The notes under the pieces were generated by a model. That model worked only from the letters and a program-made list of their open reading frames with translations, did no database searches and was not told where the DNA came from. Below, piece by piece: positions 28,532 to 56,248 of a DNA stretch of 64,000 nt (its first letter is position 1; every line of letters begins with the position of its first letter). The translations under genes and the position numbers were made by a program. Origin of the DNA: Dehalococcoidia bacterium (GTDB lineage Bacteria; Chloroflexota; Dehalococcoidia; Plut-88900); NCBI GenBank assembly GCA_965249275.1, contig CBDFLQ010000006.1, forward strand, positions 892,492-956,491. The letters run 5' to 3'.

Positions 28532-29920
28532 CTACCCCCTCGCCGCCAGCCTCACCATCAAATAAGCCATATCCCTGTCCCCCTTGATCGAATTGCACGC
28601 CGCGCAAAGCAACTGAAGGTTCTCCAGGTGGTCCGTCCCTCCCTTGGCCCGAGGCACCACGTGATCAATCGTCAGGTTGTGGATTGGGAACAGAATCTTG
28701 CACCCGGCACAGTTCCCCGCCTGCTGGCCGAACAGCACGTGCTTCTGCTTCCGGTACGGGATCGGAGCCTCGATATCCATGCGCCGAGGTATATCCGTCC
28801 GGGCCGTGACGTAGCCGTGGTGAAAGAGGCTGCCCATGGCCTGCTGCAACCGCATGTTCACCAGTTCGACCGCTTTCGGAGAGACGTCTATCCCCACCCA
28901 CTTCCTCCCCAACATCTCCGCCGCGACGCACGCGGTTGCACACCCGCAGAACGGGTCCAGAACCATGTCACCGGGATTAGAAGACGCCGAGATAATCCGT
29001 TCCAGCAGCGCAAGTGGCTTTTGAGTCGGGTAGCCAGTTCGCTCTTTTGCGTGGGCTTGGACAGGCTTGATGTCCGTCCACTGATCCTGCAAGGGAACGC
29101 CTGGCATTTCATCGAGATAGCGTTTATACCTAGGGACCGCTCCCGGCTTGCTCTGAACTATGCGACCCTCTTTGGCCAGTTTAGCCATCTGTTCTTGGCT
29201 ATACCTCCAGTATCGTATGACCCCAAGTAATTCATAGTGGGGATTTCCTTTAGCGTCACCACCTGGCCCTGTTAAATCGCCAAGTGTGTATCTTCTGCCC
29301 GTTTCCGGCTCTATGTGACGATAGAAGCGGTCTACATAGTCTTGGTCGTATTCCGTATAGATTGGGTTCCACGTCCAACTGTCTCCCTTGGAGTAGAAGA
29401 GTAGGGAGTCACGTATGCGCCCGTGCTGGCGTCGGCCTTGCTTGGTGTCGCTGTGGGCGCTACTCCGCTTCCAAGATATATCGCTGCGGAAGTTGCCTGC
29501 CCCGAATACCGAGTCCATCAACATCTTGAGATAGTGCCCCGCCGTCGGGTCGCAATGCAGGTAGATAGAGCCGGTGCCCTTCAGCACCCGCCGCATCTCA
29601 ACCAGCCGCACCGCCATCATACACAGGTAGGACTGCATCCCCTTCCCGTGCGTCAGCCCCGCCGCCTCTATCAGCTTGTACATCGCCGGTTGCTCGTCGG
29701 CAATCAACCCCATCCACGCAACATCCAACTCTGAAAGCGTCCACGTGTCCTTAAACGCCGCCCCTGCCGCCCGTGACCCGACCGGTGCGGCATAGTTCCG
29801 GTTGGAATTGAACGGCGGATCGAGATATATCAGGTCCACCGACTCGGAGTTCAACCCCCTCAAAATATCCAGGTTGTCCCCCGTCCAAATCGTCTTGTCT
29901 ACAAAATTAGCTTCAGCCAT
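28532..29920 (-). CDS. N4/N6 DNA methyltransferase fused to a C-terminal HNH nuclease
   Basis: DLIYLDPPF, YPTQKP, DPFCGC motifs; CAGC...DHVVPRAKGGTDH..NLQLLCAACN HNH motif. Confidence 0.92.
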   Translation of the reverse strand: MAEANFVDKTIWTGDNLDILRGLNSESVDLIYLDPPFNSNRNYAAPVGSRAAGAAFKDTWTLSELDVAWMGLIADEQPAMYKLIEAAGLTHGKGMQSYLCMMAVRLVEMRRVLKGTGSIYLHCDPTAGHYLKMLMDSVFGAGNFRSDISWKRSSAHSDTKQGRRQHGRIRDSLLFYSKGDSWTWNPIYTEYDQDYVDRFYRHIEPETGRRYTLGDLTGPGGDAKGNPHYELLGVIRYWRYSQEQMAKLAKEGRIVQSKPGAVPRYKRYLDEMPGVPLQDQWTDIKPVQAHAKERTGYPTQKPLALLERIISASSNPGDMVLDPFCGCATACVAAEMLGRKWVGIDVSPKAVELVNMRLQQAMGSLFHHGYVTARTDIPRRMDIEAPIPYRKQKHVLFGQQAGNCAGCKILFPIHNLTIDHVVPRAKGGTDHLENLQLLCAACNSIKGDRDMAYLMVRLAARG

Positions 29921-29966
29921 GCCGCTAGTGTAGATTAACTGTCAACTTCCCCTCCCCCTTGGTAAC

Positions 29967-30007
29967 GACATATCAGCCATGTTGCAGAGCAACATGGCTG
30001 ATATGTC
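29967..30007. repeat. Perfect 19-bp inverted repeat
   Basis: GACATATCAGCCATGTTGC-AGA-GCAACATGGCTGATATGTC. Confidence 0.9.
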
Positions 30008-30067
30008 AATAAAACAGGGCGGGGGGGGCGGGACTCAATATATCCCTGAGGGTGGTGAGACATACCT

Positions 30068-30117
30068 CCAAAAGTGACACGAACCCCTTGACCAAACTTG
30101 TACACTTGTACTATATT
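30068..30117 (+). promoter_or_regulatory. Repeated promoter (copy 1) with LexA-like box
   Basis: 29-nt identity with 53997-54025; TTGACC-N18-TATATT; GTAC-ACTT-GTAC at 30100-30111. Confidence 0.65.
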
Positions 30118-30306
30118 CACCTCCGATAGGCCAATCACTCACCCTAAACCCAAAGGAGGTACCAAAAACTAGGGAAGCCCACCCGACCCACCCGAGGACT
30201 CAACGCCCCAGCCCATCCCAACGGCCCTCGCGCAGACCCGCGGCACAAGCGAAAGTCGCCATCTCCTCATCCCCACCGGGTCCCGTGCCCCCTTCCCTGT
30301 CCCCCA

Positions 30307-30790
30307 GGCGATGGAAAGACGCCCTGGTTCGCTTATGTTCCATGTGAACCCCCTCTAAGACGCCCTCAGCCTCTTACAGGGAAACCCTCCCTCGGGAGGA
30401 ACACGCTCTTTCGAGCGGAATAGCGGTCGGATAGACCCGGCGCTGAGGTCCTCTCGGTACACCGTCCGCTTAATGAAGCCGGGAGCCGGTGGTCTACGCG
30501 CTCCTGGTCGCACCGGCAAACTCGGACACACTACGCCTGCAGAGGCCCGGCGTCGGACGCTGGACGAGCCTCCTTGCCGCCCTATAGCGGTGCAGCCAAC
30601 CCTCGGAGTCGGACTCGGACCTGCTGGCCCTGAAGGTCCCTGCCCATGTCCGGCGTATACAGGGCCACAGGCCGCAGCAGCGGCAGGCGGCGGTAGTCCG
30701 CCCCAGTCGGGCCGGCGTCCTTCCCCCAGCGCGTCGGAACACCCGAACCACAGGAACGGGGGCAGCGTCCAGCAAGCGTCTTCCATCGCC
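30307..30790 (+). ncRNA. Candidate large structured ncRNA 1 (about 484 nt)
   Basis: Ends pair (GGCGATGGAAAGACGC / GCGTCTTCCATCGCC); many nested helices; GAAA and UUCG-type loops; no credible ORF. Confidence 0.55.
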
Positions 30791-30981
30791 AACCCACCCC
30801 AAACAAACAGAACACACCGAAACCCCACCACCCATAACTGAATAACCCCCCTCCCCCGGCATAACGCCTTTGCGTAACTGTCATTCCCGAGAAATCAGAG
30901 TCCGGAAACGGTGTGAAGTGTGGGATGTTCCAGTTGTGACCAAACCCTGCGTGTGGTAGCATACTGCCCCGTCGCACGACC

Positions 30982-31953
30982 ATGATACTTACCGCCGTAG
31001 GCGCCTATCCGAAAATCACTGAAGGGCCCGAGGGACAGAGGCTCCGTAGAGCCATAGCCCGCTCCGATAGAGGAGACATCACCCCCGAAGACCTCGCCCG
31101 GGTTGAGGACGACGTCACACGGGAGGTCATCGAACAGCAGGTTGCCGCAGGCCTCGACATGGTCACCGACGGCATGATTCGCTGGGACGATGGGCAGACA
31201 TACATCGCCCGTAACCTGGAAGGCTTCGAGGCAACGGGCCTCCTGCGCTACTTCGACACCAACACCTATTACCGCCAGCCTGTAGCCACGGGCCCCATCA
31301 GCTGGAAGGGCCCCATCACCGTATCTGACTACCGGTTCGCCGCGGGCTGCACTTCGCTGCAGGTCAAGGCGATTATCACCGGCCCCTATACCCTGGCCAA
31401 GCTCTCCCGCTCCGACCACCACCGGGACCTCACTCACCTCGCTACGGATCTGGCCGACGCCCTCAGGCAGGAAGCCCTTGCCCTGGAAAGCGAGGGCGTG
31501 CCCCTTCTCCAGGTAGACGAGCCTGCCATTGTCAGGAACAAAGAGGACTGGGCACTCTTCCGTGAGGTGATGGACCGCTTCACCCAGGGTTTGAACGTAG
31601 AGCGGATGTTGTACACCTGGTTTGGTGACGTCACCGGGCTGGATGGCTTTTTTGATCTTCCCTTCCACGGCTTCGGCCTGGACTTCGTCAAGGGCCCGGC
31701 CAACTTTGACCTGCTGGACCGGTTCCCCGCAGACAAGACCCTGGGCCTCGGCATCCTGGACGCCCGCAACGTCCGCCTGGAAACGGTCGAGCATATTTCG
31801 AATACTCTTACGGAGACCTCGCGGCGGGTGTCTCTGGCCCGCATTCACCTGACCCCCAGCTGCGGGCTCGACTACCTGCCCCGGGACACGGCAATAGCTA
31901 AGCTGAGGCGCATGTCTGAGGGCGCAGCGGCGCTGAAGGAGGCGGTAAGTTAG
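30982..31953 (+). CDS. MetE-like protein, N-terminal (probably non-catalytic) half of a split methionine synthase
   Basis: TDGMIRW, ITGPYTL, QVDEP, PSCGL; the Zn-binding HxC is replaced by YTW. Confidence 0.8.
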   Translation: MILTAVGAYPKITEGPEGQRLRRAIARSDRGDITPEDLARVEDDVTREVIEQQVAAGLDMVTDGMIRWDDGQTYIARNLEGFEATGLLRYFDTNTYYRQPVATGPISWKGPITVSDYRFAAGCTSLQVKAIITGPYTLAKLSRSDHHRDLTHLATDLADALRQEALALESEGVPLLQVDEPAIVRNKEDWALFREVMDRFTQGLNVERMLYTWFGDVTGLDGFFDLPFHGFGLDFVKGPANFDLLDRFPADKTLGLGILDARNVRLETVEHISNTLTETSRRVSLARIHLTPSCGLDYLPRDTAIAKLRRMSEGAAALKEAVS

Positions 31954-53761: not shown

Positions 53762-53844
53762 CCCTCCCCCCATCCACCCCCTCCATCATTCCGGCCGCCG
53801 AGAGCCAGAATCCATCCCCATCCCCTTCTACCCAGTACTGAACT

Positions 53845-53884
53845 AGAGGCAGAGGTTGGCGCTTCTGCGCCAACCTCTGCCTCT
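53845..53884. repeat. Perfect 18-bp inverted repeat
   Basis: AGAGGCAGAGGTTGGCGC-TTCT-GCGCCAACCTCTGCCTCT. Confidence 0.9.
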
Positions 53885-53996
53885 GTTCTTATCTCCCCCT
53901 CTCCCTTGACGGCCCTAAGGGTCGAAGATGCGCCTATGGCGTGAGAGGGGGATTAAGGGGGTGAAGGTTCCCCGGTGGGGCTGGGGCGGTGTCTCC

Positions 53997-54046
53997 CCAA
54001 AAGTGACACGAACCCCTTGACCAAAGCAAAACATCTGTACTATATT
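53997..54046 (+). promoter_or_regulatory. Repeated promoter (copy 2) with LexA-like box
   Basis: CCAAAAGTGACACGAACCCCTTGACCAAA identical to 30068-30096; TTGACC-N18-TATATT; AAAC-ATCT-GTAC. Confidence 0.65.
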
Positions 54047-54397
54047 ACCCCCCCAAGCCCGACACCCCACGTCGGCCCTAATAAGGAAAGGACAAGGAGT
54101 CCCATGAGTCGCACAAGCCTCCATAGGCCCCGTCGTCCCCGAGCGGCATGCCACCGCCCGGCCACCGGCACGCGCCTACTCCCCAATCCCTTTCCACCCA
54201 ACCTCCCACATCCCAACCCCCACTACAAGCGCTGCCCCAAGGCCCATCGCCTCCGCCTCCGCAGCGATCAATCACTGTCCCTCCCGGTCCACGTGACCGG
54301 CCATGGAAGGTCCCCGGACAAAAACCTGCATACCCTTTCCAAGGGCCACTGCCAAGTGCGCGCCCCACTCACCCGGCGCATCCGTTTCGCCTCCTCA

Positions 54398-54778
54398 GGC
54401 GACGCCCCGGAGCACAGCGTCATGTCGCTCCCTTGGGCCATAGCGCCCCCTTGGGCCTTTGTGCCCTTCCCGGATTCCCCCGCCGCAGACCTTGCCGGCG
54501 AATCCGAACAGTCGGATGAGCGCCGACTCAAAACCAACGCACCATTTAAGGATTCCACCGTCGTCACCATCGGAGAACTCCGGTCTACGAACGCCGGTCA
54601 CGGGTCCACGCTCCCATCCCTTAGGATGGTCGAGCACTTCTGGTGGACGGGACTGCCCCACACCGAGAATTTCTCGGGTCTCGTCCACATCCCCTCAGAA
54701 GTTAGGGGCTGTCGCAAAGCCGGCGCTGATGTCGAACATCCGCTGTCGCGGAAAACGCCCATCGGTACAGGCGTCGCC
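54398..54778 (+). ncRNA. Candidate large structured ncRNA 2 (about 381 nt)
   Basis: Ends pair (GGCGACGCC / GGCGTCGCC); nested helices throughout; no credible ORF. Confidence 0.5.
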
Positions 54779-54988
54779 GTCTTCCTGCGCAACCGTCCGG
54801 GACCTTCCATCCCATCCACCTCCCCGGCCCCCTCAATCCAGGGAAAAGCGGACTTTTCCCGCAAAACAATCAGACCTCACGCCTGGGTCCGCGTATCAAT
54901 CAAAACTCTCCCATTCATACCCACCAAAGGAACCGCCCAACAGCCCATACCCTCAACCCCTCCCTCCACAACTAAATAACCGCCGCCC

Positions 54989-56248
54989 CTAGCTCCGCGT
55001 ATACACCGCCTCCCCTGCTCGGCGGGTGATGCGGCCGGCCCGCACCTCGGCAGTCACCAGCGCCAGGTCGGTCACGTACTGCTCGACGATGTCGTGGTGC
55101 GAGTAGTCGAAGAAGAGGTGGATGCCCTCTGGGTCAACAATGCGGTTGCTGTTCCACCCCCGGTCGGACATGCCATCGTGGACGGCATAGATGTCGAGAT
55201 TCTTCGACCCGAAAGCTGCCAGGTAGGCATGAGGCGTCCCGAACACCTCGAGCCCCTCGATGGAGTTGATCCCGTCAATGAACCGGTCCCGCGTCCCCAG
55301 AATCCTCTCCACGATGCGTAGGTATCCCTCCTCCCCCAGGTAGTTCATAACCGCCCACGCCGACGCCACCCCACCCCCGGACCTGGACCCCGTGTTGTTG
55401 CGAGTCGAGTAGAGCCCCGAGGGCCACTCGTCGAAGGTGAACCGCTGGTACTTCTCCAACGTATCGTCCCGCAGCAGCAACCCCGAGACGCCTTTGTTGG
55501 CATACCCCAGCTTGTGCACGTCCACCGAGATGGAGGTGACGCCACTCACTCCAAAGTCATAGTCCGGAATGTCATATCCGAGCTTCCTTGCAAAGGGCAG
55601 TACGAACCCACCGTGGCACGCGTCGACATGGCACCAGAGGCCCTGCTCCTCCGCCAAGGCCCCGATCTCGGTTATCGCATCGTTGGCCCCGTACGGGTAG
55701 GAGGGAGCCGATCCGGCGACCATGATGGTGTTGTCGTTAATGGCCCGGGCCATTGCATCCACGTCCGCCCGGTAGTCGATGCTGTCCGGCACCCGGACGG
55801 TCTTGATGCCGAGAATATGTGTCGCTTTGTCGAAGGCCGGGTGGGCAGCCCGCGGCACCAAGATCTCAGGCTCGGTGGCCGAGGGCCTGTGGTCTCGGGC
55901 CCAGGCCTTGGCCGCCTTCACCGCCACCACGATACTCTCCGTGCCGCCGGATGTGACGCTCCCGCCGGCGCCCTCAGGCGCGGTCAGCATCTCCAGCAGG
56001 GCGCCGATCAGCTCCCGCTCGTACCTGACTAGGCTGGGGAAGAGGTCGGGGGCGAAGAGGGCGTTGTGGTTGATGTACATCTGATAGGCATCGTTGGCCA
56101 CCTTGACCACGTCCTCCCCGCCAAAGTAGCTGCCCCCCTTGAACTGCCGAGGCTCATACCAGGGCTTGTCCTCCTCGTGCGCCGACTCCATCTCGGCGCG
56201 GACGTCGGGCCAGGGTCGGGAGCTGGGGGGAAATTGGGGTGGGGTCAT
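54989..56248 (-). CDS. PLP-dependent decarboxylase/sphingosine-1-phosphate lyase-like protein
   Basis: TSGGTES, AHPAFDKA, HVDACHGG, SVDVHK, GSRSGG; ATG start at 56248. Confidence 0.88.
   Translation of the reverse strand: MTPPQFPPSSRPWPDVRAEMESAHEEDKPWYEPRQFKGGSYFGGEDVVKVANDAYQMYINHNALFAPDLFPSLVRYERELIGALLEMLTAPEGAGGSVTSGGTESIVVAVKAAKAWARDHRPSATEPEILVPRAAHPAFDKATHILGIKTVRVPDSIDYRADVDAMARAINDNTIMVAGSAPSYPYGANDAITEIGALAEEQGLWCHVDACHGGFVLPFARKLGYDIPDYDFGVSGVTSISVDVHKLGYANKGVSGLLLRDDTLEKYQRFTFDEWPSGLYSTRNNTGSRSGGGVASAWAVMNYLGEEGYLRIVERILGTRDRFIDGINSIEGLEVFGTPHAYLAAFGSKNLDIYAVHDGMSDRGWNSNRIVDPEGIHLFFDYSHHDIVEQYVTDLALVTAEVRAGRITRRAGEAVYTRS

Follow-up and report, generated by a model that had tools for sequence, protein, structure and literature searches.

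What is the structured intergenic segment that lies beside a methyltransferase-HNH gene in a 64,000-nucleotide (nt) stretch of an uncultured Dehalococcoidia genome (contig CBDFLQ010000006.1; the whole stretch is called the window in what follows)? A preliminary description had proposed a single locus for one large non-coding RNA. The segment (positions 30065-30845; all window coordinates are positions in the 64-kb stretch) is indeed non-coding and heavily paired behind a good promoter, but it is not alone: 53 other copies of the same type, which we call type A, occur in its own genome (G000; 2.9 Mb in seven contigs, 87% complete). It belongs to a genus-level family of non-coding cassettes that uncultured Dehalococcoidia carry in many copies. 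Our reading, to which we give a probability of about 0.55, is that these are promoter-driven cassettes for a structured RNA, derived from an operon with a terminase-like gene, spread by transposition and probably acting in trans.

A search of the genome with positions 30040-30900 gave 78 matches. Anchoring on the leader (30153-30327) identified 54 type A copies, and eight or more copies belong to a second type (type B), including a cassette at 54 kb of the same window (cassette 2). All 54 type A copies follow one plan: a promoter, a leader of ~155 nt starting from AAGGAGG, a core of 310-542 nt set between a 5′ arm (GGCGATGGAAG...) and a 3′ arm (...CTTCCATCGCC), and an A/C-rich tail of ~55 nt that usually ends in CTGAATAA. 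The two arms pair in a long-range helix, P1. The type A cores form ten sequence clusters (with 13, 12, 10, 6, 4, 3, 2, 2, 1 and 1 members); the window copy is one of the 10 in cluster 2. Two supergroups of cores were found, one with clusters 0, 4, 5, 6, 8 and type B, the other, which includes the window copy, with clusters 1, 2, 3, 7 and 9. The tail of the window copy has 26-32 matching places in the genome.

The promoter is nearly as constant as the plan itself. The form TTGAY-N17-20-TAHHHT was present 5′ of the leader in 52 of the 53 type A copies examined. At up to four mismatches, the genome holds the promoter block AAAAGTGACACGAACCCCTTGACC at 42 places, and 30 of these occurrences precede type A leaders; the other 24 type A copies carry a variant promoter (GTGACATCACCCCCTTGAC...TATTAT). 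The remaining 12 blocks precede type B leaders (8) or a two-gene operon (2, see below), stand beside an IS481-like transposase gene (1), or are a weak match (1). The block of the window had been described as repeated at 54 kb, and this is the case (30047-30124 versus 53976-54053, 74% identity over 78 nt with an exact core of 27 nt). Its TTGACC-18-TATATT (30088-30117, + strand) was the sole promoter retrieved by a consensus scan (one site versus 0.3 expected). The C-rich spacer that follows was also correctly noticed, with a GC skew down to -0.39 (30100-30299).

Using blastn, we found the family in all eight other genomes of the genus and in none of the three other genera of the same family, and a further 29 genomes of the class gave one borderline match (E 9.6e-4). 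First-look candidates in the genus number from 60 to 99 in each genome. The exact 28-nt leader motif is present in at least 87 stretches of a species-representative collection, and all 80 rows among the matches listed are records titled Dehalococcoidia metagenome-assembled genomes. The preliminary description recognised no hallmarks of RNase P, tmRNA, SRP or riboswitches, and Rfam 15 agrees: no family, with HEARO, GOLLD, ROOL, OLE, group I and II introns, RNase P, tmRNA, SRP and 6S RNA among those covered, reached its gathering score in the 64-kb window, and the 11 matches in 29900-31000 (E 0.09-9.4) were all far under the cut-off, i.e., at chance level. Twelve further loci, with other subfamilies, gave only matches to signal recognition particle (SRP) RNA and to Ms_IGR-5, both outside the elements. 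A full-text search of the literature, supplementary files aside, returned no description of such an element or of a conserved terminase-like gene in Dehalococcoidia.

These two Rfam matches deserve a brief mention of their own. The Bacteria_large_SRP match (190.9 bits, L059:2312-2578, genome G005) has a polymorphic cassette insertion of G002 and G005 ~95 nt upstream. Ms_IGR-5, an actinobacterial small RNA family, matched L015:2738-2932 on the − strand (G000:C5 ~736795-736989; 58.9 bits versus a cut-off of 45). This match lies upstream of a type B cassette and was unexpected in a Dehalococcoidia genome.

P1 is the strongest structural evidence: it is a universally conserved, covarying long-range helix. 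It forms in all 62 copies (54 of type A and 8 of type B), with duplex energies of -23.7 to -38.6 kcal/mol. In the window, the pairing between the two ends of 30307-30790 had been recognised before and is confirmed (GGCGATGGAAAGACGC, 30307-30322, with GCGTCTTCCATCGCC, 30776-30790). The inner pairs differ by subfamily while remaining complementary (GACTA/TAGTC, CTGGA/TCCAG, GACTCT/AGAGTC, TTGGA/TCCAA and CCGGAC/GTCCGG). Beyond the shared GGCGATGGAAG/CTTCCATCGCC, the subfamilies continue with GACGC-CTGGA, GGTCC-GACTA, GGTCC-GACTCT, GACGCC-TTGGA or GGTCCCCGGAC. P1 is separated from the 5′ end of the element by ~240-290 nt and from its 3′ end by ~120 nt (~290 and ~120 nt in the one element with exactly known limits); being internal to the element, it is not a transposon terminal repeat. 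We also considered a DNA inversion switch, with the arms flanking an invertible segment, and rejected it, as no core matches another in reverse except in the arms.

The segment closed by P1 also folds better than expected by chance. The + strand of 30307-30790 had z = -4.6, and none of 100 dinucleotide shuffles folded as well; for the − strand, z = -3.2. Among the internal helices previously listed, 30559-66/30766-73 and 30620-32/30660-71 are complementary, and the first of them is part of the minimum-energy fold. The helix 30364-70/30442-48 and its enclosed hairpins are present in the sequence, but they are no family feature, since they fall largely in an insertion of ~40 nt (alignment columns 45-85) carried by 15 of the 33 aligned cores. 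The consensus fold was built from 33 distinct relatives from seven genomes and has 90 predicted pairs. In this fold 98.1% of the cells are paired, versus 34-43% with slid partners. Compensatory change was observed in nine pairs, versus 3.3±1.3 in shuffles (0/500) and 2-6 in slid controls. Most columns and pairs never vary, and the support within the core is therefore positive but modest.

The cores are non-coding. Codon periodicity was computed for 33 distinct cluster-2-like cores from seven genomes, with the matching segment of nine intact terminase-like genes as a control. In the window subfamily the substitutions gave a periodicity ratio of 1.05 (permutation p=0.90); lengths divisible by three were seen in only 9 of the 54 distinct gap runs, and the control gave a ratio of 2.17 (p<0.0002) and 0 gaps. 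The window copy has stops in all frames, as in its subfamily. Neither the four open reading frames (ORFs) in its core nor the frame of cassette 2, which is open across 334 codons, had a family match in Pfam or PHROG. The ORFs of this region had been set aside as spurious in the preliminary description, and periodicity, indels and family searches all agree with that judgement.

Long open frames do exist elsewhere in the family. In 11 copies of the GGTCC-type subfamilies one frame is open over 202-236 codons. The frame that is open differs from copy to copy over the same conserved nucleotides and is mostly not the terminase frame, and in the leaders, too, open frames vary between copies over the same nucleotides. 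The strand is C-rich and by its composition poor in stop codons. The AAGGAGG of the window leader has no start codon at a usable distance 3′ of it. Weak codon-like signals without a conserved protein were observed in cluster 0 (ratio 1.65, p=0.036) and in type B, where 8 of 12 gap runs are triplets.

The two promoter blocks at the head of the two-gene operon lead to the presumed parent of the family. In G000 they drive an ORF of 137 amino acids (aa) followed by one of 437 aa. The larger protein has more than 4000 homologues in databases, of ~462 aa and named "hypothetical protein" where named, and its gene is present in 32 of the 41 Dehalococcoidia genomes searched (24 of 33 genera), usually in one copy. 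Pfam did not match the 437-aa protein, whereas PHROG families of the terminase large subunit did (E 2.4e-6 and 3.5e-6), and PF17289 is precomputed for 4 of the 120 homologues among the matches listed. Sequence searches of the PDB gave only matches at E 0.2, all of them terminase nucleases, and a single-sequence search gave nothing relevant. The structural model is more informative: modelled residues 207-425 superimpose on 5m1f (Z 16.4, root-mean-square deviation 3.5, 174 residues aligned), terminase nucleases fill the first seven places of the structure search (Z 14.0-16.4), and large terminases account for 13 of the top 14 entries, with RuvC scoring 9.4. Residues 207-425 are thus predicted to adopt the RNase H-like fold of terminase nucleases. 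The confidence of the model (predicted local distance difference test, pLDDT) is 70-92 in this domain, 54 overall and below 50 in the N-terminal half, where a packaging ATPase domain was looked for and PHROG gave one weak match (residues 5-140, E 0.0077). The 3 kb examined beside the operon contain neither portal nor capsid genes, and the short gene that follows it in G000 is one that we take to encode ribosomal protein L34.

The relation between this operon and the cassettes is direct for part of the family. Residues 169-343 of the terminase-like protein align in a single frame to all eight type B elements (34-53% identity, E down to 5.6e-56). Cassette 2 is among them (54212-54394 and 54482-54817; 52% identity over 204 aa, E 5.6e-56). 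Eight of the 54 type A copies, from clusters 4, 5, 6 and 8, can be aligned with residues 202-343. The codons for G-(K/D)-G-R-F are found where P1 has its 5′ arm, and those for G-P-S-I-V where it has its 3′ arm. In five of the nine genomes of the genus (G000, G001, G002, G003 and G005) the promoter of the operon is the same GTGACACG...TTGAC block as in the elements, and looser variants of it are found in G007 and G008. The shared promoter, the protein alignments and the arms identify the family as a deletion derivative of the operon that has lost its coding capacity. A class-conserved terminase-like operon is the source of the promoter and, in one supergroup, of the cores.

The precursor of P1 can be sought in the genes as well. 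The arms are already complementary in the intact paralogues, in nine of nine genes of the genus (-17 to -35 kcal/mol). P1 was not recovered in a consensus fold of these gene segments (covariation term +0.27), with one of the nine rows 54 nt off register. In G021, the sole orthologue examined outside the genus, the arms are GC-rich and not informative on P1. For the window copy, we infer terminase descent from the promoter, leader, arms and tail that it shares with the rest of the family.

The spacer of the window promoter contains a palindrome, GTAC-ACTT-GTAC (GTACACTTGTAC, 30100-30111). Upstream of lexA, GAACGCCCGTTC is found just 3′ of the -10 element, with a GAAC-N4-GTTC box, and the recA promoter has a similar sequence (TAGAACACATATCCTAA). 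The corresponding sequence of the terminase-like operon, TAGTACACATATTCTA, matches that of recA at 14 of 16 positions (manual count), and other cassettes have the spacer 12-mers GAACACCCGTGC, GTACTTATGTTC and AAACACATGTAC. The window box departs from GAAC/GTTC at position 2 of each half-site. The likeness of the element promoters to a LexA box appears real, and control by LexA would be a testable lead rather than a result.

The family has spread by transposition of the cut-and-paste type, with imperfect inverted TG...CA ends and duplications of 5 bp. The motif (T)GATCCCGTTCACATAGAGG, ~20 nt upstream of the variant promoter, is found at 21 places in the genome. At 17 of these it is followed by ...CTACCGAACGAGTACA within 0.74-1.2 kb, i.e., they are complete pairs of terminal inverted repeats (TIRs), imperfect and with TG...CA termini. 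The 17 complete copies are flanked by 5-bp direct repeats that are perfect in 10 cases and have one mismatch in two. A site that is filled in G002 and G005 (873-874 nt) corresponds to contiguous flanks in G000 (C7:435882-435884), the flanks being 95-96% identical. The preliminary description had suggested a link to defence or mobility; these data bear out mobility, while we found no evidence for defence. Of the 54 type A copies, only 15 have the two transposon ends. The window copy has neither TGATCCCGTTCAC... nor ...GAACGAGTACA, and target duplication and presence/absence polymorphism are established for the family rather than for this copy.

A resident, active IS481-like insertion sequence (IS) of 1056 nt also makes 5-bp duplications (GGAAT) and is present in 12 copies that are 89-100% identical. 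Its ends (TGTAGATGTCAGGTAATTCGTTGACAG) and those of the element (TGATCCCGTTCACATAG...) are different. We take its 320-aa transposase to be of the rve/DDE type, by eye only, from the motif YRPQTNGKIERFWRTL. This IS inserts into palindromic repeats of the GTCATTCC type and is often found directly beside the RNA cassettes. A retron or retrotransposition was considered and rejected, as RVT_1 (reverse transcriptase) had no match in the 87%-complete genome.

The cassettes are mosaics. Between copies with different cores, the median identity is 0.81 in the leader, 0.88 in the P1 arms, 0.69 in the tail and 0.59 in the core interiors. Within one core cluster, the interior reaches 0.91, versus 0.84 for the leader, 0.78 for the promoter and 0.73 for the tail, and both promoter variants are represented in cluster 2. 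Core interiors that are more similar than leaders and promoters within clusters point to modular exchange between copies. Promoters, leaders and cores have evidently been reshuffled, which could reflect recombination or repeated insertion at the same site. The site of the window copy lies 5′ of a methionine-synthase-like gene, and its orthologues hold an element in G001, G002, G003 and G005 and none in G004, G006, G007 and G008. With G000, five species have an element there. The core at this site is close to cluster 0 in G003 and to cluster 1 in G001; those of G002 and G005 have no close counterpart in G000 and look cluster-4-like by eye.

The features of the window and of the related loci are given in Table 1.

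Table 1. Coordinates of the cassette components, neighbouring genes and related loci (positions in the 64-kb window unless a contig or locus is named).
Feature	Position	Strand	Remarks
Hairpin repeat module	29946-30040		contains a perfect 19+3+19 inverted repeat, 29967-30007
Promoter block	30065-30124	+	AAAAGTGACACGAACCCC; -35 TTGACC 30088-93; palindrome GTACACTTGTAC 30100-11; -10 TATATT 30112-17
Leader	30153-30306	+	conserved, C-rich, G-poor; starts AAGGAGG
Structured core, subfamily cluster 2	30307-30790	+	484 nt; closed by P1 (30307-30327 with 30769-30790)
Extra hairpins (insertion)	30351-30389	+	one sub-branch of the subfamily only; includes the 30364-70 arm of the preliminary description
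A/C-rich tail	30791-30845	+	nearly free of G and T; 3′ end CTGAATAA
Cassette 2, type B	53976-54990	+	same promoter block; own leader AGGAGTCCCATG...; P1 arms 54296-54320 / 54795-54818
DNA methylase-HNH fusion gene	28532-29920	-	Pfam N6_N4_Mtase E 2.8e-39, HNH E 1.9e-13
Cobalamin-independent methionine-synthase-like gene	30982-31953	+	Pfam Meth_synt_2 E 4.3e-32; co-oriented, downstream
Parent operon	G000:C7:110676-112614		137-aa ORF, then 437-aa terminase-large-subunit-like ORF
IS481-like IS, examples	C7:999572-1000627 (G000); L058:373-1428 (G002)		

The immediate surroundings of the window element add little to its definition. The methylase-HNH gene, to which the element had been tied, has no match at any of the eight orthologous loci, whether the element is present there or not. 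It is an incidental neighbour outside the unit and, being absent from the sister loci, belongs to a variable insertion itself. A second, partial match to this gene is found elsewhere in the genome (coverage 2). The methionine-synthase-like gene is kept in nine of nine genomes of the genus. The perfect 19-bp inverted repeat at 29967-30007 is present as described and belongs to a module of ~95 nt with ~17 matches in the genome, including the window copy; in G002, G005 and G003, the orthologous loci have conserved this module together with the element. The hairpin is no terminator, since it has no T-run 3′ of it on either strand, and a consensus scan revealed no terminator-like sites in 29900-31100.

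Other repeats are common around the cassettes. The hairpin module accompanies some, not all, of the class-1 promoters. Window positions 53840-53975 and several other loci (e.g., 3′ of the terminase-like operon and 5′ of C7:349002) hold more dispersed modules: a hairpin (AGAGGCAGAGGTTGGCGC...GCGCCAACCTCTGCCTCT), a palindrome (CCCTCTCCCTT...AAGGGAGAGGG with GGGGGATCAAGGGGGTGAGGGTT) and GTCATTCC...GGAATCC units. The intergenic DNA of G000 is a mosaic of such dispersed repeat modules.

How could these pieces work together? Each cassette would be a self-contained transcription unit, with a strong sigma-70-type promoter, a palindromic operator-like spacer, an unstructured C-rich leader, a heavily paired core (310-542 nt) closed by the long-range P1 of ~20 bp, and a tail. 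It would have originated in the chromosome as a deletion derivative of the operon for the small protein and the terminase-like protein. The promoter and the stretch coding for the first two thirds of the nuclease domain would have been kept, and the coding function then lost; the window copy either lost the transposon ends or never had them. Transcription from the promoter would give a + strand RNA of ~700 nt. P1 would be a substrate for RNase III, which is encoded in G000, and the cut would free a stable structured core of ~480 nt. This core might then act in trans, controlled together with the terminase-like operon. The + strand transcript, its ends, the processing of P1 by RNase III and the trans role are read from the sequence, and a trans-acting RNA is our best guess for the function of the element.

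A more specific proposal can be made, which we regard as doubtful. The cassettes would be large RNAs derived from the terminase-like mRNA and maintained by the host, co-induced through the shared LexA-like operator and acting in trans with or against the ATPase-nuclease. Such RNAs could possibly be packaging cofactors in the manner of the phi29 pRNA, decoys that titrate a protein or a regulator, or marks that direct the machine to many sites in the chromosome.

Several observations weigh against a trans-acting RNA of terminase origin. The covariation in the core is modest (RNAalifold covariation term -1.56), and the structure does not tell the strand. Consensus folds of the − strand are equal or better in three of four alignments, and the helices common to both strands hold 6, 9, 2 and 4 G-U pairs versus 7, 17, 1 and 6 A-C pairs in the four alignments. 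Wobble pairs are not informative here because the predicted structure of each strand holds its own; the GAAA/UUCG-type loops, earlier taken as a marker of the + strand, do not settle it (G-U 6 versus A-C 7 in helices common to both strands). At the orthologous site, the cores belong to another subfamily in each species in spite of flanks that are 87-95% identical, and the element is 82% identical versus 91-94% for its flanks. For the window's own core, a terminase origin found no support, as similarity to the terminase gene stops at the arms. With the arms removed, an nhmmer profile of the terminase-derived group gave nothing at E<=10 against clusters 1, 2, 3, 7 and 9, and tblastx and blastn of these clusters against the masked genome gave only noise. 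Finally, no autonomous partner with matching ends was found in G000, the genome searched, where no pair of end motifs spans more than 1.2 kb.

Some of these points suit another explanation, which we consider possible if unlikely, namely a purely selfish, non-autonomous transposon of the MITE (miniature inverted-repeat transposable element) or mobile-insertion-cassette type. Its interior would be a decaying terminase-like relic with no role in trans. The promoter and the folding would be by-products, or would serve the element itself, through transcript insulation or RNase III cleavage that spares neighbouring genes. The TG...CA ends, the 5-bp duplications and the filled/empty polymorphism are as expected of such a transposon, and so are the 60-100 first-look candidates per genome of the genus. 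The ends, however, are the least conserved part (15/54), versus the promoter (52/53) and P1 (62/62). The high turnover seen at orthologous sites, where sister species have different cores, and the equally good folding of both strands also fit a selfish element. The identity of cores within a subfamily (0.91, versus 0.78 for the promoter and 0.73 for the tail) is not expected of a neutral relic, and P1, which covaries between subfamilies, measures 15-20 bp in the elements, having been extended from the ~6-9 bp seen in one gene paralogue. There are precedents for the activities invoked: Correia elements and other MITEs are described as carrying sigma-70 promoters and giving stem-loop transcripts that RNase III cuts (PMC10969869). 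The resident IS481-like IS likewise makes 5-bp duplications, yet its ends are unlike those of the element.

We prefer a functional RNA to a selfish relic because the promoter, the leader and P1 are present in nearly all copies, the parts needed for transposition in less than a third, and because the cores are better conserved within subfamilies than their surroundings. This preference is moderate, given the lack of a strand signal and the high turnover at single loci.

An action in cis seems improbable. The element would be a mobile promoter with a long structured 5′ untranslated region (UTR), possibly stress-responsive, and the tail would be an unstructured landing zone for ribosomes. As such a role would have it, 36 of 52 copies have a co-oriented gene downstream, which in 30 of these 36 starts within ~200 nt of the tail; yet the other 16 copies point at a convergent gene, towards its 3′ end. 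On the upstream side, 34 of 50 copies have a divergent neighbour. The orientations on both sides show that the elements are mostly in spacers facing gene starts, and a bias present on both sides fits a preference for, or survival in, spacers that contain promoters. Transcription in cis would be helped by the absence of a terminator-like site between the window element and the methionine-synthase-like gene, and by that of a Rho RNA-binding domain, which we did not find in the 87%-complete genome. For the latter reason, a Rho-dependent terminator in the tail, which we also considered, is unsupported. A promoter-like TTGTGA-N17-TAGCAT nevertheless lies between the element and the downstream gene, at the same place in an element-free genome (by eye), and a core of 400-500 nt far exceeds the needs of a 5′ UTR.

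It is very improbable that the cassettes encode a Pro/Arg-rich protein family, or are silent donors for gene conversion into the terminase-like gene: the open frames of the 11 GGTCC-type copies and of cassette 2 and the signals in cluster 0 and type B are set against frames that are inconsistent between copies, stops in every frame, no periodicity and mainly non-triplet indels in the window subfamily, an AAGGAGG with no start codon downstream, no Pfam or PHROG family, and a strand poor in stops by composition, and the donor hypothesis was rejected because most copies are open in a frame other than that of the terminase.

On the more specific proposal made above, a coding sequence would have been exapted into a diversified family of RNA genes that was then spread by transposition. 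Should the RNA be made and functional, this would be a clear natural case of a phage-type nuclease-domain segment turned into a large structured RNA gene. The family makes up ~2% of the genome and has many subfamilies behind one conserved promoter and leader. The terminase-like operon is itself unannotated, in spite of its wide distribution in the class. Even if the cassettes are selfish they matter for annotation, since 60-100 units per genome, with strong outward promoters and mostly located by gene starts, are missed by gene callers and by Rfam.

The cassettes share traits with several known systems and coincide with none of them. The termini are like those of IS3/IS481-type IS, with TG...CA ends, imperfect TIRs of ~17-29 bp and fixed 5-bp duplications; unlike these IS, the element has no transposase, and its ends (TGATCCCGTTCACATAG...) are not those of the resident IS (TGTAGATGTCAGGTAATTCGTTGACAG). 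The pRNA of phage phi29 is encoded by a single-copy phage gene and is ~170 nt long. Non-coding and structured, it is described in connection with a phage-type ATPase for DNA packaging (PMC5066667). The analogy with the cassettes would be functional only: they have dozens of chromosomal copies and 400-500 nt, show no similarity in sequence or to its model, and the terminase-like operon differs from the phi29 setting in having no portal or capsid genes beside it (3 kb examined).

Large structured RNAs such as HEARO/omega-RNA, OLE, GOLLD, ROOL and raiA resemble the cassettes in size and in the manner of their discovery: they measure several hundred nt, have intricate pairing and came to light through comparative genomics. 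Like the cassettes, HEARO is multicopy and tied to a mobile element. The cassettes match none of the corresponding Rfam models, and have no adjoining IscB, TnpB or HNH partner, the HNH gene of the window not being conserved with the element. Unlike these RNAs, the cassettes bring a promoter of their own and a conserved leader with every copy, and the core comes from terminase-like coding sequence.

There is a parallel in organisation with Correia-type (Neisseria) and other promoter-bearing MITEs, which are likewise protein-less, multicopy and intergenic, with TIRs, target duplications and a sigma-70-type promoter. Correia elements and mobile insertion cassettes measure ~100-300 nt, whereas the cassettes measure 740-900 nt. 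The transcripts of Correia-type MITEs form stable helices that RNase III is able to cut, according to the same account (PMC10969869); in the cassettes, the conserved helix is internal and does not arise from the terminal repeats. Most copies of the element lack transposon ends and yet have the promoter and the fold. Its interior is a complex, multi-helix structure with at least ten subfamilies and a protein-coding gene as its source, which sets these cassettes apart from Correia-type MITEs.

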